Part shown: positions 12,911-59,391 of the stretch, one piece after another
Layout: each line of letters opens with the position of its first letter
Numbering within the stretch: position 1 is the stretch's first letter
From: Burkholderiaceae bacterium
GTDB lineage: Bacteria; Pseudomonadota; Gammaproteobacteria; Burkholderiales; Burkholderiaceae
DNA length: 64,000 bases
Direction: 5' to 3'
Assembly (NCBI GenBank): GCA_031538895.1
Contig: JAVKLU010000020.1
Location: 108 to 64,107, forward strand
Made by a program: the position numbers and the translations under genes
Notes under the pieces: generated by a model
What the model was told of the DNA's origin: nothing
Databases searched by the model: none
Seen by the model: only the letters and a program-made list of their open reading frames with translations

Positions 12911-13498
12911 ATGTTAAAAAATCAGTCTGTAATTAACGCTCAACAAAGCTCTCAAAACGCTTCAGAAAGTGTCCGAACCTCAAGTACTCTAAATGGCCTA
13001 AGCGCTTCGTGGTATTTGGTGCACACCAAACCGCGCCAAGAAGACACTGCGCTGATCAATCTCGAACAGCAGGGATACATGTGCTATTTACCCAAACTGC
13101 AAATCGAAAGAATTCGTCGTCACAAAGCCGAAGTCGTCATCGAGCCAATGTTTCCTCGTTATTTATTTATCCAACTGAATCAGCGTGACGAAAATCAAAG
13201 TTGGGCGCCAATCCGATCCACCATCGGTGTCAGCCAGCTAGTGCGCTTTGGCACACAGATTGCAAAAGTTGATGATCGATTGCTTGATTTATTGCGCTCT
13301 CGCGAATCGACCCACCCTACCGAATCATTATTCCAGCCAGGTGAACACGTTCGCGTTACTGAGGGTCCATTTATCGGTTTTGAAGCGATCTATCAAACCA
13401 CCGATGCCGAGCGCCGTTCAATGATTTTGTTAGAGTTTCTCAACAAACCCGTGTCTGTCAAAATCAATACGGCGGGTCTCGAAAAAATTGCGTCGTAG
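12911..13498 (+). CDS. NusG-paralog transcription antiterminator (RfaH-like)
   Basis: NGN domain start (WYLVHTKPRQE...MFPRYLFI) and a C-terminal KOW-like segment (GEHVRVTEGPFIGFEAIY). ATG at 12911 chosen because the longer ORF overlaps the divergent SDR gene. Confidence 0.7.
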   Translation: MLKNQSVINAQQSSQNASESVRTSSTLNGLSASWYLVHTKPRQEDTALINLEQQGYMCYLPKLQIERIRRHKAEVVIEPMFPRYLFIQLNQRDENQSWAPIRSTIGVSQLVRFGTQIAKVDDRLLDLLRSRESTHPTESLFQPGEHVRVTEGPFIGFEAIYQTTDAERRSMILLEFLNKPVSVKINTAGLEKIAS

Positions 13499-14744: not shown

Positions 14745-15536
14745 CTAGCTCTTGCTCAGTCCCAAAGACCGCTTGATCTGTTGAATTTTAATTGCCGCGC
14801 TTTCGTCTTGTACCGCGCCTCGCCAAGCCTTGCGCACAAAAACAAATAGCAGCAAAACAAAAGCAGAAGCCAAGGTCGCTAACACGATAATGAGACTGCG
14901 CTTTGGCGACACTGGCTTTGACGACAGGCTGGGTTCTTGAGCAAACACCTCCGCACCCCTCGCTTTTAACTTCAAACTCAACTCTATATTATCGACTCTT
15001 GGATCCACAATATCTGTCTTATTGCTAGATCGCCTAAATGTGCCTACCCCATCAGCAATCAACTGATGATTCAAGGCCATTTTTTGCACAATCGCCTCCC
15101 GTTCTTGACCTTTAGGTTGTAGCTCGATGAGTAACACTTCTACCGCATTGCGGCCTAAGGCTTGGGCGTCTTCAGGGCTCGTTCCTTTCGCCACGAGAGT
15201 GGCCAATTTAGTTTTTTTGTCGATTGAGTACGAAAGATTTTGTTTTAGCAACTGACGCGCATCGTCTTTTACCCCATCGGCCTTGGCCAAGAAGCCAAAT
15301 TTGTCAATCAATTGGTCCAGTACAGGCGTAGTATGGAGTAATGCGATTTCTTCATCATTCAAACGTAGACTGGCGATGGATTCATAAGTCTTAGGGCATA
15401 AAAAACTTACCCCACCGGCTAAAATAGCCACCACCAAAGGACCAATGATCAACAATCGCCAAGCCTCGGCCAGCGTGACCAAAATATCCAGTAGGCTAAT
15501 CTCATCATCGCTTGGTTCTATTATTTGTTCTGTCAT
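14745..15536 (-). CDS. Wzz/FepE-type polysaccharide chain-length determinant domain protein
   Basis: N-terminal Wzz motif region (DDEISLLDIL...) followed by a TM helix, a periplasmic coiled region, and a C-terminal TM helix. Confidence 0.6.
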   Translation of the reverse strand: MTEQIIEPSDDEISLLDILVTLAEAWRLLIIGPLVVAILAGGVSFLCPKTYESIASLRLNDEEIALLHTTPVLDQLIDKFGFLAKADGVKDDARQLLKQNLSYSIDKKTKLATLVAKGTSPEDAQALGRNAVEVLLIELQPKGQEREAIVQKMALNHQLIADGVGTFRRSSNKTDIVDPRVDNIELSLKLKARGAEVFAQEPSLSSKPVSPKRSLIIVLATLASAFVLLLFVFVRKAWRGAVQDESAAIKIQQIKRSLGLSKS

Positions 15537-29099: not shown

Positions 29100-29216
29100 T
29101 GCCGCTTCGCAAGGTGCTATTCCAAAAATCCGCTCCCTTATGTGAGAAAAAACGTCAGAAAAAATATCTCCATAATTGCCTTTTCAAGGTAGATAATCAT
29201 CTATACAATTCAAACC

Positions 29217-29447
29217 ATGAACTCAAAACTGACATGGCACGAACCAAAGAGACAAGCGGCGTTAGCTGAGCGTGGTCTTGACTTTGCTGATGCCAACCAG
29301 ATTTTTGCCAGCGCGACGTTTGAGTATGAGGATACGCGAGAAAACTATGGCGAAAAACGCATGATTTGTTTTGGCTACCTGTACGGTCGTTTGACAGTGC
29401 TTGGTTATGTTCAACGTGACGATGATCGTCATATTTTTTCAACGTGA
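29217..29447 (+). pseudogene. brnT: BrnT-family (DUF497) toxin, C-terminally truncated by a tandem duplication
   Basis: WHEPKRQAALAERGLDFADA..IF......EDTRENYGEKR is BrnT-like. The conserved C-terminal R.I.S.RKA motif (RHIFSMRKANERE) is only readable in a different frame after a 28-bp duplication. Confidence 0.65.
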
Positions 29448-29466
29448 CGATGGTCGTCACATTTTC
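29411..29466 (+). repeat. 28-bp imperfect tandem duplication inside brnT
   Basis: tcaacgtgacgatgatcgtcatattttt / tcaacgtgacgatggtcgtcacattttc, 25 of 28 identical. 28 is not a multiple of 3, so it causes a frameshift and a TGA at 29445-29447. Confidence 0.85.
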
Positions 29467-29482
29467 TCAATGAGGAAAGCAA

Positions 29483-29839
29483 ATGAACGCGAACAATCAA
29501 AATTTGGGTAGTGATATGGCAAGAGTGGATGCACACGAGATTGCCCCGCAAGAGTACGACGTGCTTCCCGAACTGACGCAAGCCGACCTTGCTCGCGGGG
29601 TTTGGAAGGTTGCGGGTAAAGAGGTAACGCCAGCAGAGGGCAAAGCGGCTTTTCGTTCGGCACTGAAAAAGCAAAAAATCAACATCACCCTTGACCCCGA
29701 CGTGCTGGGTTGGTATCGCTCGCAGGCTGGCGGTCGTGGCTATCAAACGCTGATCAACGCCACGCTTCGAGAGGCCATGACGACCCACACGATAGAGGAC
29801 ACTGTGCGGCGCGTTATCCGCGAGGAACTACACCGCTAA
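29483..29839 (+). CDS. brnA: BrnA-family antitoxin
   Basis: 118 aa directly downstream of brnT. The C-terminal block KQKINITLDPDVLGWYRSQAGGRGYQTLINATLREAM matches the BrnA/DUF4415-type pattern. Confidence 0.7.
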   Translation: MNANNQNLGSDMARVDAHEIAPQEYDVLPELTQADLARGVWKVAGKEVTPAEGKAAFRSALKKQKINITLDPDVLGWYRSQAGGRGYQTLINATLREAMTTHTIEDTVRRVIREELHR

Positions 29840-29890
29840 ATTTGCCCCCGCCCCGCCTCTGCCCCCTCCCCGCCCTGCGGGCAACCCAAA

Positions 29891-29903
29891 GCGGCTACGC
29901 CGC
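29891..29903 (-). promoter_or_regulatory. short GC hairpin 3' of VR2 (candidate DGR target-recognition hairpin)
   Basis: GCGGC-TAC-GCCGC, located 5 nt beyond the stop codon of target 2. An analogous hairpin sits in the same position after VR1. Confidence 0.5.
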
Positions 29904-29907
29904 CCAA

Positions 29908-30438
29908 TCACTGACTGGCACGCACCAACCGAACTTGGCCGTAGTAGCCGTAGCGGTTGCCGTCGCCGACCTTGCCGTAGCCGAAATCGACGACCCAGGC
30001 GTAGCCGCTAGTGCCCACATACGGCGAAGATGACCAGTACCAGTTGCTGGGCGTGCTTGGAAAGGCCGTGCTGTCGATGCTGGGGTTTTGGCAACCCTTG
30101 TCGGCGAGACTGGTCAGCTCTTTCACATTGGGCAGACGCCAACCAGTCGTGCTGTTTGCGGTGTTGGCACTTTTGGCCCGGACCAGCGCTTGCTCGTGTG
30201 TATAACTTGCTGCCGTGCCGGTGCAGCTGCTGCCGCTCAGGGTTTGGCCCTCGCTGCAGCGCTTCCACACCAAGCCGGTGCGCGTGTCGGTCACCTCCTC
30301 GCCGCTGATGCTGAAGCGCTCTGCGGTGGGCCAGCTGGGGCAGGCGGCATGGGCTTTTAGGGCGGTGGCGCTCAGGGTTGCCGCCACCAGGGCCATGCAC
30401 AGCATGGGGGCCGCAGCCCGTGTCATTGAGTGTTTCAT
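29908..30438 (-). CDS. secreted DUF1566-like (Lcl C-terminal/C-type-lectin-fold) protein, DGR target 2
   Basis: Strong SD (AAGGAG) before the ATG at 30438 and a signal peptide MKHSMTRAAAPMLCMALVAATLSATALKAHA. GWRLPNVKEL motif, with the C-terminus carrying VR2 (…SSPYVGTSGYAWVVDFGYGKVGDGNRYGYYGQVRLVRASQ). Confidence 0.8.
   Translation of the reverse strand: MKHSMTRAAAPMLCMALVAATLSATALKAHAACPSWPTAERFSISGEEVTDTRTGLVWKRCSEGQTLSGSSCTGTAASYTHEQALVRAKSANTANSTTGWRLPNVKELTSLADKGCQNPSIDSTAFPSTPSNWYWSSSPYVGTSGYAWVVDFGYGKVGDGNRYGYYGQVRLVRASQ
29913..30032 (-). repeat. DGR variable region VR2 (120 nt)
   Basis: Aligns to TR end to end. Differences lie at TR adenines, except one C/G site at 29971, with one extra codon. 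Confidence 0.85.
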
Positions 30439-31850
30439 GTGATCTCCTTGAAATAAAAATCGGTGATTTCCCGCCGTCGTGTGCCGTGTTTGAGCCAGCC
30501 GGTTTGCACTGCCTGTACCCGGCTGCCGTCGGGTGTTTGCAGGGGTGCAAAGCGCAGCCATTCAAAGCCCTTTTGCACCTCGCACACCGCATGCGGCCAC
30601 TGCTGGCGCAGCCAGGCCACTTGCTCGGCCAGCGTGGTGCCTTGCAACACCCAACGCGGGGCAATCTGCCCAGCGGGGTTGATGTGAAACAAGGCCCGCA
30701 GCCAGCCGTAACGCGCAAACAAGGCATGGCTCAAGCGCACGCTGTGTGCATGGGCAAAGTGCCCCCAATAGCTGGCCAGCACGTGCTGCAACTGCGCCAG
30801 CTGCTGGGCGCTGGTGTAGATGCCACCACCCCGGCAATGGCGGGCGGCCCATTGCGCCAACTTTTGCTTGCAGTGCTGCACCACGCGGCGGCGCACCAGG
30901 CGGTGGTGCGGGTAAACCACGTAGCCCAAAAAGTCCACCCCTGCTTGCAAGGGGGCCACCCGGTGTTCGTCTTTGAGCTTTAAGCGTAAACGTGTTTGTA
31001 AAAAATCTGCAATTTGACTTTGCCACAGGCGCAGCTGCGCGGGGTTGTCGGCCAGCAGCACAAAGTCGTCCACATAGCGCACATAGTGCCGCACCTTGAG
31101 GTTGTGCTTGACAAACTGGTCCAGCTCGTTCAAGTACACATTGGCAAAAAATTGGCTGGTCAGGTTGCCAATAGGTAGGCCGCAACCGGCTGGGGCGTTG
31201 CACAGCCGCTTGTGCGGGGGCACGCGCTGCGCTGCTTCGGGGTTGCGCACGGCTTCTTGCACGGGGTGGGCCAGCAGTTTGTGGCACAGGCTGCGCAGGG
31301 AGGTGTAGATCCCCGCCTTTGCATCCAATTTGGCTGTCAACAACCGGTATAGCGTAGGCCGGTGGATGGTGTTGAAAAAATTGTGCACATCCAGCTGCAA
31401 AAACCAGCCTTGTCCGCCGCAAGCGTTTTGCTGCGCCCGCATGAAGGTTTGCAGCCGGTCTACCGCCGCGTGGCTGCCTTTGCCGCGCCGGTTGGCGTAG
31501 CTGTCGTGAATAAACACCGGCTCATACAGCGCCTCTAGCTGTGGCACCAGCCAGTGGTGCACCACCCGGTCGGCAAAGTCGGGGGCGTGGATTTCGCGGG
31601 TTTTGGGCCGGTTGACCACAAAAGAAACAGTGCGGCGCGGCACCCAGGTGCCTGCGCCCAAATCGGCTTGCAATTGCTGCAAATGCTGCAACCAGCGGCT
31701 GGCAAAACGCAGCTGGTTGGCGCTGGGCTTTTTGCCGCGCCGCGCGGCCAACCACGCGGCATGGCATTGGGCCAGCGACACCCGCACCGGCACCCGGGGG
31801 CTGGCGGTACGCGGGGTCTGAACATTCACGGCTTGCAAGTGGCGCTCCAC
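30435..31850 (-). CDS. DGR reverse transcriptase
   Basis: RT motifs: PKTREIHAPDFADRVVHH, NRRGKGSHAA, FLQLDVHNFF, GLPIGNLTSQFFANVYLNELD (the DGR-typical [IL]G...SQ box), and YVRYVDDFVLL (YxDD). The ORF-track start is a GTG 1 nt from TR, so the true start may be further in. Confidence 0.9.
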   Translation of the reverse strand: MERHLQAVNVQTPRTASPRVPVRVSLAQCHAAWLAARRGKKPSANQLRFASRWLQHLQQLQADLGAGTWVPRRTVSFVVNRPKTREIHAPDFADRVVHHWLVPQLEALYEPVFIHDSYANRRGKGSHAAVDRLQTFMRAQQNACGGQGWFLQLDVHNFFNTIHRPTLYRLLTAKLDAKAGIYTSLRSLCHKLLAHPVQEAVRNPEAAQRVPPHKRLCNAPAGCGLPIGNLTSQFFANVYLNELDQFVKHNLKVRHYVRYVDDFVLLADNPAQLRLWQSQIADFLQTRLRLKLKDEHRVAPLQAGVDFLGYVVYPHHRLVRRRVVQHCKQKLAQWAARHCRGGGIYTSAQQLAQLQHVLASYWGHFAHAHSVRLSHALFARYGWLRALFHINPAGQIAPRWVLQGTTLAEQVAWLRQQWPHAVCEVQKGFEWLRFAPLQTPDGSRVQAVQTGWLKHGTRRREITDFYFKEIT

Positions 31851-31851
31851 A

Positions 31852-31968
31852 GACTGGCACGCACCAACCGAACTTGGTTGTTGTTGTTGCGGTTGTTGTT
31901 GTTGACGTTGCCGTTGTTGAAATTGACGTTCCAGGCGTTGTTGCTATTGCCCACATACGGCGAAGATG
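31852..31968 (-). repeat. DGR template repeat (TR, 117 nt)
   Basis: In the target frame it reads SSPYVG-NSNNAWNVNFNNGNVNNNNRNNNN-QVRLVRAS, with 14 AAC and 2 AAT codons. It lies in the avd-RT intergenic space and has no credible start of its own. Confidence 0.9.
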
Positions 31969-32058
31969 CTGGGCGCACCTTACCACTGCAGCCAATGCCC
32001 CAAGCCAGGGTGTACGCTGGCGAACCCGCTGCGCATCCCAAAGGGTAGCGCCGCATCG

Positions 32059-32589
32059 TCATGGTTGAACCCCATCAGCCGCCCTTGGCGCAAAGCCTGG
32101 CGCTGGTGGGGTGGCACACCCACTCAGTGAAGCGGGGTGGGCCCCAGCCGGTGGCTGGGGCTGTGACCCGGCGCCCCGGTCAGGGGCGACTTGGTTTGGG
32201 CGTTGGCGGCGGGCCAAGGCCTGCCACCAACCGCCGCACTGTTTGCCTATGCCCGCCGCCAAAGTAGCGGCTTGCTCAAAAGCCGCAAAGCTGGGGCTGG
32301 GCTGGCCCTGCTGCCCCTTGTGTGTGCGCGCAAAAGCGCCCACATCCATGGTCAGCTGCAAGCAGAGCTTGTAATCGTCTACCAGCCAGAGCAGCGCCTG
32401 CACATGCTCGCCCTGGCGGGGCTTGTCGTGCACGGCTTTGTTGACTTGCTGCATGATGCCAAAGGCCCGCTGGCGCAAGTCCGTGCCCACGGTGTATTTG
32501 TGGTAACGGGCAAAACGCATGACCATTTGCTCGGTGTGCAGCAGCAAGCGGCGGCAGTCGCGGTAAATGGGGGGCAGTGGTGTGCTCAT
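32059..32589 (-). CDS. avd: Avd-like accessory variability determinant (four-helix-bundle protein)
   Basis: Lies between VR1 and TR. The helical, basic N-terminal ~125 aa (…YRDCRRLLLHTEQMVMRFARYHKYTVGTDLRQRA…AAGIGKQCGGWWQ) resembles the bAvd / 23S-IVS four-helix-bundle family. A P/A/G-rich tail of about 50 aa follows. Confidence 0.75.
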   Translation of the reverse strand: MSTPLPPIYRDCRRLLLHTEQMVMRFARYHKYTVGTDLRQRAFGIMQQVNKAVHDKPRQGEHVQALLWLVDDYKLCLQLTMDVGAFARTHKGQQGQPSPSFAAFEQAATLAAGIGKQCGGWWQALARRQRPNQVAPDRGAGSQPQPPAGAHPASLSGCATPPAPGFAPRAADGVQP

Positions 32590-32605
32590 GATTTACAAAG
32601 CCAAA

Positions 32606-32616
32606 GCGCTTCGCGC
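32606..32616 (-). promoter_or_regulatory. short GC hairpin 3' of VR1
   Basis: GCGC-TTC-GCGC, located 5 nt beyond the stop codon of target 1. The coding strand reads GCGC-GAA-GCGC. Confidence 0.5.
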
Positions 32617-32620
32617 CCAA

Positions 32621-35600
32621 TTACTGACTGGCACGCACCAACCGAACTCGGAGGCCGTCGTAGCGGTAGTAGTAGCCGCGGCTGCTGACGTCGCCGCCGC
32701 CGAAACCGACGTCCCAGGCGTAGTAGCTATCGCCCACATACGGCGAAGATGTCCAGTAATAGCTGTAGCTTGGCGTGTTGGGGAACCAGGTGCCATCCAC
32801 CGTGGGCCCGGGGTAGGCCACGCTGTAGTCCACGATGCTTTGCAGCTCGTCAGCGGTGGGCAAGCGCCAATCGCTGTAGCCGCACAGGCCTCTTGCGTTG
32901 ACGGCATTCACATAACCGTAGGTGTTGGTGGTCGCATCCATTTGCGATTGGGAGCCGTAGTAGCTGCTGTGGTAATTGGTGTAAGTGCCGTTGGGGTCGA
33001 GTGCGGGATTGCCCCTTGTGACACCACTGCCACTGGCCGGTTTGCCCTCCCACATTAAACCCGTGATATTGTCTTTGACGCATTCAGTCAGCGCATAGCT
33101 CCCCACCCTGCTGTAGCTCAAACCCAGCTTGCCGTCGCTGTTGTCATTATTGCTCACGTCGCGGCCCACCATGCCGTCTTGCTGGCTGTTGAGGCTAACG
33201 GCCGCGCTGCTGGTGCAACTGATGAGCGTGTTGCTGCCCGCGCTATAGCATTGGCTGGCGGTGATGCCGGTGTCGGTGAGTTTGCTGGTAGTGTACGCGG
33301 TAATGGTGGCCGACACCAAGGCACTATTGCCGGTGGTGTTGTAAGTGTTGGCTTTGACCAGCGCGCCGGCAGCGTAGGTGCTGCTTGACCTGGTGCTCCA
33401 ACCCCCACTACCACTGGCCACCAATAAGGCGGTACTGTTATCTGGCCAAGTAATTTTGATATTGGCATTATTGGCGGCCGTGCCGCTAACCACCACCGTG
33501 CCATTGGCTTGGGCTGCCGCACTAGTAATGGTGGGCGGAGTGGGGGAATTTTTCGCACAGACCCCACTAGCGTTTAGGCCTTGACCTACTGCACAAACGG
33601 TAAAGGTGTAAGTCTGTGTGCCCAATAAGGTACCCGTTTTATTCGCCCCACCATAATAAGTAATGGTGGCGGCATAACTGCCCGCAGTGTTGATGGTGAT
33701 GCTAATTTTGCCCGCTACCCCCGCACTAACGTTTGCGGTTTGTTCTGTGTAGCCTGTTAATTGCCACGCCACCGAACCTACATTGCTGGGTGCACCCTCT
33801 AACCAAAAATCAACACTGCTGCCTACCGTCACCGTAGGGACGCTGGTTTTGATGGTGGCGTCAAAACCAGCCGTATACAAGTCAGTTGTTTTGGCATTAA
33901 GAATCGCCAATACCGGCTCTGCCATCAAAGTGTCCGTCATTTTTTGCGATCCCTTCAGAATCACGTCTGAACTGATGACAAAAGCTTCGTCGGCACGCGC
34001 ATTCATTTGTTGCCCAATGACATATGCATCTAAAAAACCAGTGACGACATTTAAAGTGCCTTTGGCGTATTGCATCGATACTGAATCAGGAAACATGGCC
34101 AAGGCCGAATTCACCAAATTCAGCCAAACCTGCGCCATAACCATTTTTTCGTTGCTAGCGCTAAGTGTTACGCTGCCCGTAAATACGTCGGCAATCAAAG
34201 CTGCATTGCTCATATTTCCCGCAGATGCAAGACTGCTCACACATTGCAAAGGCACCGTAATCGCGGTAGTAAAATTTTTACTGGTCAGATTGTCATTACT
34301 AATTTCTCGCACTGCCGTTTGGTATTCATTGACTCTGGACTTTACATCAGGACCACAATTGTTGATTAGACTAATGATCTGCGCTGAACGATTCAAAGCA
34401 ATAATGTACTGCACCATTTTTTGCGTATCACTGGTTTGCTGTATAACCTGTGTCCCACCATCCGCCGCGATTGCCGCTACAGGATAGGCTATTTGCAGTA
34501 CCCCCGTAACCGACTTAACCCCAGCTCCAGCAACTGCCAACCAGTCGTTTAGGGCGCCACGTCCATACAAGCCTTGTCCCGTGGCCGACCAATTAGCCTT
34601 GTATAAATCACTACTGAGATATTGATTGAGCGCCGCGAATTGTTCAGCGTAGTTATTTTTAATATAGCTAGTCCGTTCAGTGTCGGGAATACCTGCCAAC
34701 TTTCCGAGTTCACTTTTTCGCTCATTTTCACTTAAACGCTCCCAAACAATACGCTTACCCGAAATAATACTTTTCGCCTTAGCGTTATCGATCATGGCTT
34801 GAATTGTTGCCAATTGTGCGCTTGTCCAAGCGGCTTTATTTTTAACCACTAAATTTTGTGCCGCCATATTGCTAGGTAATGTCAATTCACCGACATTGGC
34901 CCCTGTAAGGACATCATTTTGCAATTGTCTAAAAAGTAAATAGCCCGCATGTAAACACGATACAGTGGTAGCACAACCGTAATTAGGGGACGCCATAAGG
35001 CCCAACTTACCATCATCCGACGAACCCCAATTACCCCGCCCTGTAGTGCTTGAGTGGTAATAACCGCCGGCACGTCCTACCGGTAATTTATTATTGGCTA
35101 TTGTTTGATTGGGACGTATCTCCGGTGTTAGCCCTAACAGCACTTCTGTAACAGTGGCATTACCCACTTTAGCTTGCTGTAGCAGACTATTGCTGCGCGC
35201 CTGCGACGTGTTATTGGCACGAAAACGTTGCCCAGCAAAGCTAATTAAATAATCTCCATCTGACACAAGATTAGATGTGTTCACGCCCAAACCAATACCC
35301 ACATACACGGGAATAGTGGGAAGATTGTTTTCTGAACGGGCAATCGCGGCAGGCAAATAACCCGCCTGCGCATAATTGCCACTTAAGCCAACATCTTGCT
35401 TAGTTTGTTCGGAAAAAGCAGTAACTGGTTTTCCCATTTCATAGCAAGACACCTCCTGACATCCCGGAATAAGTCCTCCCGCAAATTGACCGTCAGGCAA
35501 ACTAATCCCATCAATCACACCATCTGCCGACAAAATTCCGGAATGAGGACTCCCTAAGGTCATTAAGGATGCCACTTTGCCCCCTACCTCTCTATGTGCT

Positions 35601-37036
35601 GTGGCATACCGCGACAGTCCTTGCAACATAGTGCGTGTCAGCACGCCACCAAACGAGTGCGCCACAATGTGCACTTTTTTGCCAGACAACTTATAAATAT
35701 ATTCTACCGTCGTCGCTAAATCATCCGCCGCCAAACGAAAGCTTTGGTTGGTGTACCAATGGAACTCAAAGGGAACCAAATTATTGCCGTTGGGCAATGC
35801 TGTTTGCATCGCCAGCTTAGGAAAGTTGCCCCAAGTACCTTCCCCTCCGCCAATCGTAAGATTAAAACCATGAACAAATAAAATGGGCTCGTACCCATCC
35901 CATTTAAACGAACGAACATCGCCTGTGATGCTGGTCTGTACTTCATAAGCAGGGCGTAGTTCGGTAGTAATGAAGAGTTCTGTCGCATCCTTAATATCGT
36001 TAAAAGTAGATTTGATCTTGTCCAAAACACCAATCCCAGGATCGTTATAACTTGGTAGACCGAAAGTCGGATCCCAAAATCGTTCGGAAACTACATCTAA
36101 AGCCGAATCGAACGCAACTTCATCCCCCTGTAGCACCACTTGCCCTAAGCCATTGCTAATAATAGGTTTAATGCCATTGTTGGCGGTACTGTGAGATACG
36201 TAAGGGTCTTTATTCAGGCTGGGGCTAGAAAATGCTTGTACAACTCTCTGTATTGCTTGGCTTATTCTCGCCAAAATAGACTGGCTACCGACATTCGCAC
36301 TAGATAAAACGCTATAGGGGTCATAAGCCGGTTTTCCTTGAGGTAGGTTAATTTTTATATTTTTATCTAATGCACTTTTCGGCAAAGAAAACTGAATTTT
36401 TTTACCGTTATCGGTATTCGCTACGGTAGTGGCTATTTGCACGGGTGCTTCTAGATTATTTGCAGATATGCTTGCCGTTTTCCCGTCACCAAGGTCAATA
36501 GACGCCCCCTGTGCGCCAAGACTGGTTGTGCTTTGTACAGCCGGTTCTACCACCGTTAGAGTGCCTTTAATGAGTGCGTAATTTTGAGTCTGAACATTGG
36601 TTGCCCTGACCACATAGTCTTGCTTGCCTACTGTTAGTTTTTTAGCATCAATTGTGAAATAGGTTTCGCCGTCTGTGCCTTTGGCTAACTGAGACATTAC
36701 GCCACTATCAAGCGTATACGTAATATCTGCTGGCCGGACGCTAGCTGCATAGCTGGCTTTAACTTGCCCATATACCGCTTGTCCTTTCACTACAGAAGTA
36801 GCGTTATCCAAAATTTGTACACTGAGAAGACCCAAATCTTGGATGTCTACTTGCTTAGCAGCCGTGGTAGGCGTGGTAGGCGTGGTAGGCGTGGTAGGCG
36901 TGGGCGTGGGCGTGGGCGTGGGCGTGGGACACGCGGTCACTAGTCCCACCAAAACACTGGCAATCAAAAACCGCGCAAAGCGTAAAAAACTTGGCGCGCT
37001 TGGTCTGTTTATTTGCGCCCGACGGGCGCGCGTCAT
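32621..37036 (-). CDS. large surface lipoprotein with an alpha/beta-hydrolase (lipase/esterase-like) domain and a C-terminal DUF1566/CLec domain, DGR target 1
   Basis: Lipobox LVTA-C after a hydrophobic segment, then a (TP)n/(TTP)n linker. Hydrolase motifs ILFVHGF and HIVAHSFGG (G/A-x-S-x-G). C-terminal SDWRLPTADEL motif and VR1 (…SSPYVGDSYYAWDVGFGGGDVSSRGYYYRYDGLRVRLVRASQ). Confidence 0.85.
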   Translation of the reverse strand: MTRARRAQINRPSAPSFLRFARFLIASVLVGLVTACPTPTPTPTPTPTTPTTPTTPTTAAKQVDIQDLGLLSVQILDNATSVVKGQAVYGQVKASYAASVRPADITYTLDSGVMSQLAKGTDGETYFTIDAKKLTVGKQDYVVRATNVQTQNYALIKGTLTVVEPAVQSTTSLGAQGASIDLGDGKTASISANNLEAPVQIATTVANTDNGKKIQFSLPKSALDKNIKINLPQGKPAYDPYSVLSSANVGSQSILARISQAIQRVVQAFSSPSLNKDPYVSHSTANNGIKPIISNGLGQVVLQGDEVAFDSALDVVSERFWDPTFGLPSYNDPGIGVLDKIKSTFNDIKDATELFITTELRPAYEVQTSITGDVRSFKWDGYEPILFVHGFNLTIGGGEGTWGNFPKLAMQTALPNGNNLVPFEFHWYTNQSFRLAADDLATTVEYIYKLSGKKVHIVAHSFGGVLTRTMLQGLSRYATAHREVGGKVASLMTLGSPHSGILSADGVIDGISLPDGQFAGGLIPGCQEVSCYEMGKPVTAFSEQTKQDVGLSGNYAQAGYLPAAIARSENNLPTIPVYVGIGLGVNTSNLVSDGDYLISFAGQRFRANNTSQARSNSLLQQAKVGNATVTEVLLGLTPEIRPNQTIANNKLPVGRAGGYYHSSTTGRGNWGSSDDGKLGLMASPNYGCATTVSCLHAGYLLFRQLQNDVLTGANVGELTLPSNMAAQNLVVKNKAAWTSAQLATIQAMIDNAKAKSIISGKRIVWERLSENERKSELGKLAGIPDTERTSYIKNNYAEQFAALNQYLSSDLYKANWSATGQGLYGRGALNDWLAVAGAGVKSVTGVLQIAYPVAAIAADGGTQVIQQTSDTQKMVQYIIALNRSAQIISLINNCGPDVKSRVNEYQTAVREISNDNLTSKNFTTAITVPLQCVSSLASAGNMSNAALIADVFTGSVTLSASNEKMVMAQVWLNLVNSALAMFPDSVSMQYAKGTLNVVTGFLDAYVIGQQMNARADEAFVISSDVILKGSQKMTDTLMAEPVLAILNAKTTDLYTAGFDATIKTSVPTVTVGSSVDFWLEGAPSNVGSVAWQLTGYTEQTANVSAGVAGKISITINTAGSYAATITYYGGANKTGTLLGTQTYTFTVCAVGQGLNASGVCAKNSPTPPTITSAAAQANGTVVVSGTAANNANIKITWPDNSTALLVASGSGGWSTRSSSTYAAGALVKANTYNTTGNSALVSATITAYTTSKLTDTGITASQCYSAGSNTLISCTSSAAVSLNSQQDGMVGRDVSNNDNSDGKLGLSYSRVGSYALTECVKDNITGLMWEGKPASGSGVTRGNPALDPNGTYTNYHSSYYGSQSQMDATTNTYGYVNAVNARGLCGYSDWRLPTADELQSIVDYSVAYPGPTVDGTWFPNTPSYSYYWTSSPYVGDSYYAWDVGFGGGDVSSRGYYYRYDGLRVRLVRASQ
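32626..32751 (-). repeat. DGR variable region VR1 (126 nt)
   Basis: Aligns to TR with invariant ends. All substitutions I can see are at TR adenines. It is three codons longer than TR. Confidence 0.85.
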
Positions 37037-37231: not shown

Positions 37232-37374
37232 GGGCACTTCTATCAATTCATTTTTGCGGCGAATTGCTTTTTTGCACAGTACGCGAAATCCTCACCTACT
37301 GTATGTACGCTCCGGTTTCTGTGTGCTGTGCGCCTCGCACTTCATCCGCACATTCTGTATTTATAGAAGTGCCC
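37232..37374 (-). mobile_element. 143-bp MITE-like element, copy A (inverted relative to B and C)
   Basis: Terminal inverted repeats GGGCACTTCTAT.AAT / ATT.ATAGAAGTGCCC, flanked by a direct TTTA/TTTA. About 95% identical to the copies at 52206 and 59249. Confidence 0.75.
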
Positions 37375-37487
37375 TTTAGCTAAATGACGAACAGTGTCAC
37401 GCATTCGCTTGACTTTGCCGTCTTTGATACTGCTATCAGACACCGCAACCACGCATTTTTTGACGTTCTTATTTCTCTCATCACACT

Positions 37488-52180: not shown

Positions 52181-52205
52181 AAATTTTTCAGCAAAATTCC
52201 AATAA

Positions 52206-52348
52206 GGGCACTTCTATAAATACAGAATGTGCGGATGAAGTGCGAGGCGCTCAGCACACAGAAACCGGAGCGTACATACAGTACGTGAGGATTTCGCGTA
52301 CTGCGCAACAAAGCAATTCGCCGCAAAAATGAATTGATAGAAGTGCCC
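52206..52348 (+). mobile_element. 143-bp MITE-like element, copy B (within the pstA-pstB spacer)
   Basis: Same TIRs (GGGCACTTCTATAAAT…ATTGATAGAAGTGCCC), flanked by a direct ATAA/ATAA. Confidence 0.75.
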
Positions 52349-59239: not shown

Positions 59240-59248
59240 ACGCCTGTA

Positions 59249-59391
59249 GGGCACTTCTATAAATACAGAATGTGCGGATGAAGTGCGAGGCGAACAGCAC
59301 ACAGAAAGCGGAGCGTACCTACAGTACGTGAGGATTTCGCGTACTGCGCAACAACGCAATTCGCCGCAAAAATGAATTGATAGAAGTGCCC
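59249..59391 (+). mobile_element. 143-bp MITE-like element, copy C
   Basis: Same TIRs, flanked by a direct TGTA/TGTA. It begins 10 nt after the proA stop. Confidence 0.75.

Follow-up and report, generated by a model that had tools for sequence, protein, structure and literature searches.

Organization and Genomic Context of the Locus

On the minus strand of the 64-kb window, i.e., the whole stretch of 64,000 nucleotides that we analyzed and to which all coordinates refer, we identified five elements in the order target gene 1, an avd-like accessory gene, a template repeat (TR), a reverse transcriptase (RT) gene, and target gene 2. The TR (31852–31968, 117 nt) is a block shared with two variable repeats (VRs): VR1 (32626–32751, 126 nt) makes up the last codons of target gene 1 (32621–37036, 1471 aa), and VR2 (29913–30032, 120 nt) makes up the last codons of target gene 2 (29908–30438, 176 aa), with each VR ending two codons before the stop codon of its target. 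The avd-like gene (32059–32589, 176 aa) precedes the TR, and the TR lies directly upstream of the RT gene (30435–31850) and abuts its start, with essentially no separate spacer. All of these features are encoded on the minus strand, and an arrangement with two targets is common among the relatives of this locus.

The region from 29600 to 33600 has a GC content of ~60%, vs. ~47% for the host chromosome, and this ~4-kb GC-rich island spans target gene 2, the RT gene, the TR, the avd-like gene, and the part of target gene 1 that encodes its C-terminal ~330 aa. The flanks consist of housekeeping genes (pyrF, a racemase gene, ppa, rimM, trmD, edd/eda, and a YcaO gene), and the element is therefore a small chromosomal island and not a prophage. 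We considered whether a fusion unique to this genome had joined a native low-GC gene to the GC-rich sequence encoding the C-terminus of target 1, and rejected this, since a syntenic relative (assembly GCA_031539125.1, hereafter L027) has the same junction at ~95% identity.

The surroundings of the element also contain other features. A BrnT toxin (29217–29447) and BrnA antitoxin (29483–29839) pair encoded on the plus strand directly adjoins VR2; the region holding this pair (29109–29662) is missing from L027, and in a JGI metagenome contig (L026) a related cassette is followed by ParDE and HicAB modules. In addition, a 145-nt MITE-like repeat occurs three times, at 37232–37376 (minus strand), 52204–52348 (plus strand), and 59248–59391 (plus strand), with 96.5–97% mutual identity and with the terminal inverted repeats GGGCACTTCTAT and ATAGAAGTGCCC; the copy located just upstream of target gene 1 is absent in one related contig (L019).

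Comparison of the Template and Variable Repeats

Read in the coding (minus) frame, the TR encodes the peptide NSNNAWNVNFNNGNVNNNNRNNNNQ, VR2 encodes TSGYAWVVDFGYGKVGDGNRYGYYGQ, and VR1 encodes DSYYAWDVGFGGGDVSSRGYYYRYDGLR, and the coding strand of the TR contains 38 adenines and two (AAC)4 runs. A first-pass annotation, made from the sequence alone, had given the same three peptides, a TR content of 14 AAC and two AAT codons, and a TR at 31852–31968; our analysis returned identical peptides and codon counts, and these coordinates are exactly the block common to both VRs. The edges of this block, CATCTTCGCCGTATGTGGGC and GTTCGGTTGGTGCGTGCCAGTC, are each present three times in the 64-kb window where no occurrence is expected, and a search with both anchors found no additional VR copy in the 64-kb window.

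The three repeats differ in length, which the first-pass annotation left unmentioned, although the substitution pattern that it drew from its alignment was correct. VR1 exceeds the TR by 9 nt, owing to three NNC codons added to its first AAC run, and VR2 exceeds it by 3 nt, owing to a single NNC codon added to the second such run. An ungapped alignment of TR and VRs consequently contains 17–30 mismatches at non-adenine positions, so that the pattern which the annotation itself had named as contrary to its reading, a substantial fraction of mismatches outside adenines, is formally present; a single in-frame gap (9 nt for VR1 and 3 nt for VR2), placed anywhere in the (AAC)4 runs, brings back the adenine-only pattern, and in gapped or gap-independent comparisons such mismatches number 0–1.

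With one gap for each VR, tabulation of mismatches by TR base demonstrated that VR1 is altered at 21 of 38 adenine sites and at 0 of 79 non-adenine sites (Fisher p = 4e-13), and VR2 at 20 of 38 adenine sites and 1 of 79 non-adenine sites (Fisher p = 3e-11), i.e., 41 of the 42 substitutions in both VRs fall on adenines. The sole exception, plus-strand G31907 in the TR vs. C29971 in VR2, is a C-to-G change on the coding strand that converts AAC to AAG. These counts bear out, down to this single site, the earlier statements that VR1 differs at coding-strand adenines only, that VR2 does so with one exception, and that non-adenine positions are conserved. When only the blocks outside both AAC runs were compared, where gap placement is irrelevant, the pattern was the same, with 12 of 22 adenines vs. 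0 of 68 other bases altered in VR1 (p = 2e-9) and 10 of 22 vs. 1 of 68 in VR2 (p = 1e-6). VR1 and VR2 are unlike each other at many adenine-derived positions, in agreement with the proposal that both VRs have been rewritten independently. Thirty-five of the TR adenines are mutable: two in each of the 16 Asn codons, one in an AGC codon, and two in a CAA codon.

The TR is located inside a 78-aa pseudo-ORF (31826–32062, minus strand) that is in the same frame as the VRs, encodes a truncated copy of the Lcl_C domain found in both targets, and has an ATG overlapping the stop codon of the avd-like gene. This ORF is probably what remains of the duplicated target gene from which the TR arose.

The 3′ Ends of the Repeats

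The 22-nt GC-rich block GTTCGGTTGGTGCGTGCCAGTC at the 3′ end is identical in the TR, VR1, and VR2, and is followed by AGTGA or AGTAA in the VRs and by TGTGG in the TR. A common block that is followed by VR-specific and TR-specific bases matches, at the level of sequence, the IMH/IMH* arrangement, and we regard the block as a putative IMH.

Short GC hairpins are present behind both VRs, GCGC-GAA-GCGC (32606–32616, minus strand) at 12 nt past the end of the VR1/TR identity, where the target-recognition inverted repeat of a diversity-generating retroelement (DGR) would lie, and GCGGC-GTA-GCCGC (29891–29903, minus strand) at the same offset behind VR2. Their stems are 4–5 bp long and fold no better than shuffled sequence (z = −0.2 behind VR1 and z = −1.1 behind VR2), so that the support for the VR1 hairpin is positional. 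In the MAG UBA7470 (L010), the stem at the position of the VR2 hairpin is 9 bp long (z = −3.8). According to Wu et al. (2018; PMC5758913), only about one DGR in three has a GC-rich inverted repeat immediately behind its VR.

Accessory Protein, Reverse Transcriptase, and Target Proteins

The 176-aa product of 32059–32589 matches the NCBIfam model NF033474 (DivGenRetAVD) with E = 1.7e-4 and 21.8 bits, below the cut-off of 80. Pfam gave no match, and a PDB search with the single sequence gave no usable one; a profile built from 11 positional homologues reached the four-helix-bundle protein 2gsc (E = 0.013). Four helices followed by a Pro/Ala/Gly-rich tail are predicted, with low confidence in a single-sequence AF2 model (pLDDT 57), and the protein is basic (pI 9.6–9.9). 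The accessory variability determinant (Avd) of DGRs is a small, basic four-helix bundle encoded beside the TR. The position of this gene is kept in 20 related loci. As its matches are sub-threshold, we class the product as Avd-like.

The RT gene has a maximal ORF of 471 aa, or 467 aa from the start at 31838 chosen by gene callers, and its product matches RVT_1 (1.5e-16). It contains the motifs IGNLTSQ (31152–31172) and YVDD (31065–31076), and an IGxxxSQ motif is typical of DGR RTs. The best relative in the PDB is 8ub7 (E = 5e-43), which we take to be the RT of the Bordetella phage DGR, followed by group II intron RTs at 1e-14. By its best structural match and its motifs, this protein is a predicted member of the DGR clade of RTs. 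NCBIfam models for other RT classes scored far below their cut-offs on this protein, i.e., 102 bits vs. 300 for the group II intron model TIGR04416, 52 vs. 200 for Drt3a, and 47 vs. 235 for the retron model, and Rfam models, scanned against all of the window, matched a single tRNA and neither an intron RNA nor a retron RNA.

Target 1 has an N-terminal signal with a lipobox-like LVTAC, a Pro/Thr linker, an alpha/beta-hydrolase-like region at aa 385–505 with HSFGG at aa 460, and a C-terminal Lcl_C domain at aa 1319–1468 that contains VR1. Target 2 consists of a signal peptide and a single Lcl_C domain that contains VR2; its start codon and the stop codon of the RT gene overlap as ATGA, gene calls for it are present in identical contigs, and a PDB search with this protein gave no usable match. 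The Lcl_C (PF07603) matches have E-values of 3e-27 for target 1 and 5e-32 for target 2, and in both proteins the match stops no more than three residues short of the C-terminus.

Large proteins that join a hydrolase to Lcl_C (or to Lectin_C or FGE-sulfatase) form a widespread family. We find the same DGR cassette on three different target bodies, i.e., the 1471-aa protein of the window, a 1304-aa protein in L026 (3295–7209) with Big_13/Ig-like and TSP3 motifs and without the hydrolase region, and a 368-aa short form in L019 (317–1423) that lacks the sequence corresponding to 33538–36929 of the window. The presence of one cassette behind different target bodies suggests that the cassette core moves independently of the target body.

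Alleles and Related Loci

Seven contigs (runs SRR25831485–SRR25831495) encode the RT protein with 100% identity and all also have an identical TR, and this same TR was found in L010 and in L019–L026, with a length of 75 nt between anchors in every contig. It is identical at the nucleotide level even where the rest of the cassette has diverged: L010 has 88–95% nucleotide identity to the cassette of the window, and the RT of L026 is 94% identical to that of the window. An exact-anchor scan (GCCGTATGTGGGC N66-96 GTTCGGTTGGTGCGTGC) of the metagenome_contigs and viral_contigs collections found nothing although the JGI contig L026 carries the TR, indicating that these collections do not hold the locus.

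The VRs vary against this constant background, in that contigs which agree fully in RT protein and TR carry three alleles of VR2 and two of VR1; these alleles come from automated assemblies (Logan contigs), which may be chimeric in repeats. One VR2 allele of 78 nt between anchors is shared by the window, L020, and L025, i.e., by three independent assemblies; L019 has a different allele of 78 nt, and L024 a third of 81 nt. VR1 measures 84 nt between anchors in the window and 80 nt in L019 (1330–1436), where the addition of 5 nt relative to the TR causes a frameshift and a premature TAG about 8 codons early; this allele may be dead, or may be an error of de Bruijn assembly within the repeat. The avd-TR-RT-target 2 segment of L019 is almost identical to that of the window, with different alleles of both VRs, and its upstream flank is only ~88% identical. 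Comparison of L024 with the window showed that 8 of ~2160 nt differ outside VR2, vs. 26 positions inside VR2, which in L024 is also 3 nt longer. In near-identical contigs, differences are concentrated ~60-fold in the VR, and they occur at TR-adenine positions only. The occurrence of different VR alleles under an identical RT and TR argues for recent or ongoing retrohoming.

Among the seven in-frame alleles of the identical TR (from the window, L010, L019, L024, and L026), we counted 141 changes at adenine sites (83 A-to-G, 50 A-to-T, and 8 A-to-C) and one at a non-adenine site. Six of the seven are longer than the TR, by 3–9 nt, one is equal, and none is shorter, and all codons in their AAC-derived runs are NNC. 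More widely, among the relatives of this RT, 12 of 67 distinct TR–VR pairs contain indels, nearly all of which are multiples of three beside AAC runs, with 10 insertions and 5 deletions on the VR side. A fixed additional codon in the second AAC run of VR2, as seen in four alleles, was considered and rejected, since VR2 of L026 and VR1 of the window have the TR length in that run.

L027 differs from these contigs. It has 94–99% identity to the window over the flanks and most of target gene 1, vs. 65–72% from ~33030 to ~29660, with the break near 33030 falling inside the Lcl_C domain, so that the DGR core looks to have been exchanged by recombination. L027 contains two VR-like repeats (13255–13435 and 15031–15226) and encodes a 408-aa RT; no avd or TR was recognisable, only 57 nt separate target gene 1 from the RT gene, and BrnTA is missing. 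This relative therefore has either a decayed DGR or an assembly collapsed between VR1 and TR.

Discussion

The locus is best explained as a chromosomal Legionella-type DGR in which an avd-TR-RT core serves two flanking targets with DUF1566/Lcl_C domains of the C-type-lectin fold, a reading to which we assign a probability of roughly 0.92. DGRs are a well-known bacterial system, and in the present one the RT would rewrite, at adenine positions, the tips of two surface-type proteins. The adenine-specific TR/VR pattern, the gene set and gene order, and the strain-to-strain replacement of VRs under an invariant TR and RT are direct observations. On the model of the Bordetella phage, the TR would be transcribed, the RT together with the Avd-like protein would copy it into cDNA with random bases placed opposite template adenines, and this cDNA would replace the homologous VR at the 3′ end of either target gene. 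Replacement would be directed by the common GC-rich 3′ segment (IMH), and probably also by the short hairpin behind each VR. The first-pass annotation had read the substitution pattern as the hallmark of mutagenic retrohoming, and the adenine specificity, an RT directly downstream of the TR, the Lcl_C targets, and the allele variation under an identical TR and RT all point the same way.

As a canonical two-target DGR of the Legionella type, chromosomal and well preserved, the element belongs to a well-described family. Wu et al. (2018; PMC5758913) place DUF1566 targets in class “d” (the CLec2 VR class), with Legionella LdtA as the exemplar, and name the avd-TR-RT order Architecture B; their survey also describes elements with several targets, appended domains that change rapidly, and an atypical GC content that points to horizontal transfer. 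Indels of whole codons at AAC runs and isolated changes outside adenines are likewise on record there (Wu et al., 2018).

By gene order and target class, the core is like that of the DGR of Legionella pneumophila Corby (LdtA), with which it shares a VR at the C-terminus of a DUF1566/Lcl_C domain, a lipoprotein-like signal on a target, a cellular rather than phage-borne location, a GC content unlike that of the host (pointing to horizontal transfer), and a very AAC-rich TR with high theoretical diversity. It differs from the Corby element in that the window contains no recognisable integrative conjugative element and we see no MutS-like accessory gene at this locus, and in having two targets. 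The gene of one precedes avd and encodes the 1471-aa protein with its alpha/beta-hydrolase-like region, and that of the other follows the RT gene in translational coupling. With the DGR of Bordetella phage BPP-1 (mtd-avd-TR-brt), it has in common the order target-avd-TR-RT (here with an avd-like gene), the closest solved RT (8ub7, 5e-43), adenine-specific substitutions, and an IMH-like GC-rich 3′ segment that is the same in all repeats and gives way to bases specific to VR or TR; the short hairpin behind each VR is a candidate for a further shared feature. Unlike the phage element, the one described here is chromosomal and has two targets, which belong to the Lcl_C fold subclass and not to that of Mtd. 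Its VRs exceed the TR in length, its RT start follows the TR with essentially no spacer, and its Avd-like protein is only weakly similar.

Could these repeats be ordinary paralogous C-termini, shaped by point mutation or gene conversion, next to an unrelated RT such as that of a group II intron or retron? Models for group II intron, retron, and Drt RTs do match this RT below threshold; these NCBIfam scores are, however, far below their cut-offs, the best solved relative is a DGR RT, no intron RNA is present in the window (where one tRNA is the only RNA family match), and 41 of 42 substitutions fall in one base class (p below 1e-10), so that the adenine bias and the affinity of the RT effectively refute this reading. 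A further question is whether the DGR is decayed or inactive, such that the VR differences are old relics and the variation among contigs reflects coexisting ancient alleles or recombination between strains. L027, with its two VR-like repeats and RT and no recognisable avd or TR, shows that decay occurs at this locus, the cassette core is mosaic between strains, and the VRs of the window carry one non-adenine change and length mismatches. Against this, the ORFs of the window are all intact, the catalytic motifs of the RT are kept, the TR is perfectly conserved, and the differences between near-identical contigs show the ~60-fold concentration in the VR, at TR-adenine positions only, that is described above. 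We therefore consider inactivity improbable, and the turnover of VRs under an invariant TR argues for a DGR that is active or was recently so, as judged from the assembled alleles.

The length differences have been addressed for DGRs in general by Wu et al. (2018; PMC5758913), who found TR/VR indels in 25 of 372 DGRs, 14 of them with indels in multiples of three, with 74% of indels adjacent to AAC and with in-frame indels clustering near the non-phage, multi-target Lineage 4; non-adenine substitutions were present in 23% of DGRs. In their proposal, AAC repeats make the RT lose register, since two of three incorporations there may be mismatched, and this slippage model has been restated in a 2026 reconstitution paper (PMC12875486). 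The element described here resembles their AAC-indel DGRs (NAR 46:11, Fig. 4C-D) in having in-frame indels inside AAC runs and a non-adenine substitution in one target and not the other, and in belonging to a non-phage, multi-target lineage. It goes beyond these in offering several alleles of one identical TR, six of seven in-frame alleles with insertions, and near-isogenic contigs that differ in VR length, which is support at the population level that a survey could not give.

Applied to this locus, the extra NNC codons would arise when the nascent cDNA slips backward on (AAC)4, and slippage of RT register on AAC repeats during cDNA synthesis is the most likely cause of the change in VR length. 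In a genuine DGR the indels could also have a source other than the RT, either slippage during DNA replication or unequal recombination, acting on the VRs once homing is complete, or contraction of (AAC)n in the TR, with selection having kept the longer loops. Such an origin would fit the adjacent identical codons in VR1 (TAC TAC TAC and AGC AGC), which look as if they came from tandem duplication, the perfect AAC microsatellites of the TR, which are prone to slippage, and the lack of any in-frame allele shorter than the TR. TAC and GGC are, however, the commonest outcomes anyway, so that repeated codons are expected by chance, and recent contraction of the TR is unlikely given that it is identical at the nucleotide level in three cassettes that are otherwise 5–12% diverged (the window, L010, and L026). 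The near-isogenic contigs also weigh against a source outside the RT, since their VR2 alleles vary in content and length together (78 vs. 81 nt), implying that a change of length accompanies rewriting, and on balance we regard such a source as rather unlikely. Register slippage by the RT does not in its symmetric form predict the excess of insertions (six of seven alleles longer and none shorter), so that a directional slip or selection on loop length would be needed. The stronger proposal, that the two (AAC)4 runs make the RT slip often enough for loop length to be diversified routinely along with loop sequence, as in antibody CDR3, seems to us about evenly poised between being right and wrong.

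These findings add an apparently active two-target DGR in the chromosome of an uncultured proteobacterium, in which the alpha/beta-hydrolase-like body of target 1 ends in a hypervariable tip of lectin fold, and in which the 35 mutable adenines would make possible ~1e21 DNA variants and ~1e20 protein variants of the ligand-binding face. What exceeds routine annotation is the natural allele series, where TR and RT are identical and VRs vary in both sequence and length, and which suggests, from comparison of the assembled alleles, frequent in-frame codon insertion at (AAC)4 runs; all other features of the element had been catalogued before. Codon insertions made by the RT were proposed in 2018 (PMC5758913) and restated in 2026 (PMC12875486), and demonstrated in neither study, and length diversification by DGRs has so far been inferred from static TR/VR comparisons only. 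The allele series could be used to test whether the RT makes in-frame codon insertions at AAC repeats and, if the insertions do arise in cDNA, the locus, together with the samples in which it occurs, would offer a natural setting in which to demonstrate and quantify programmed length diversification by a DGR.
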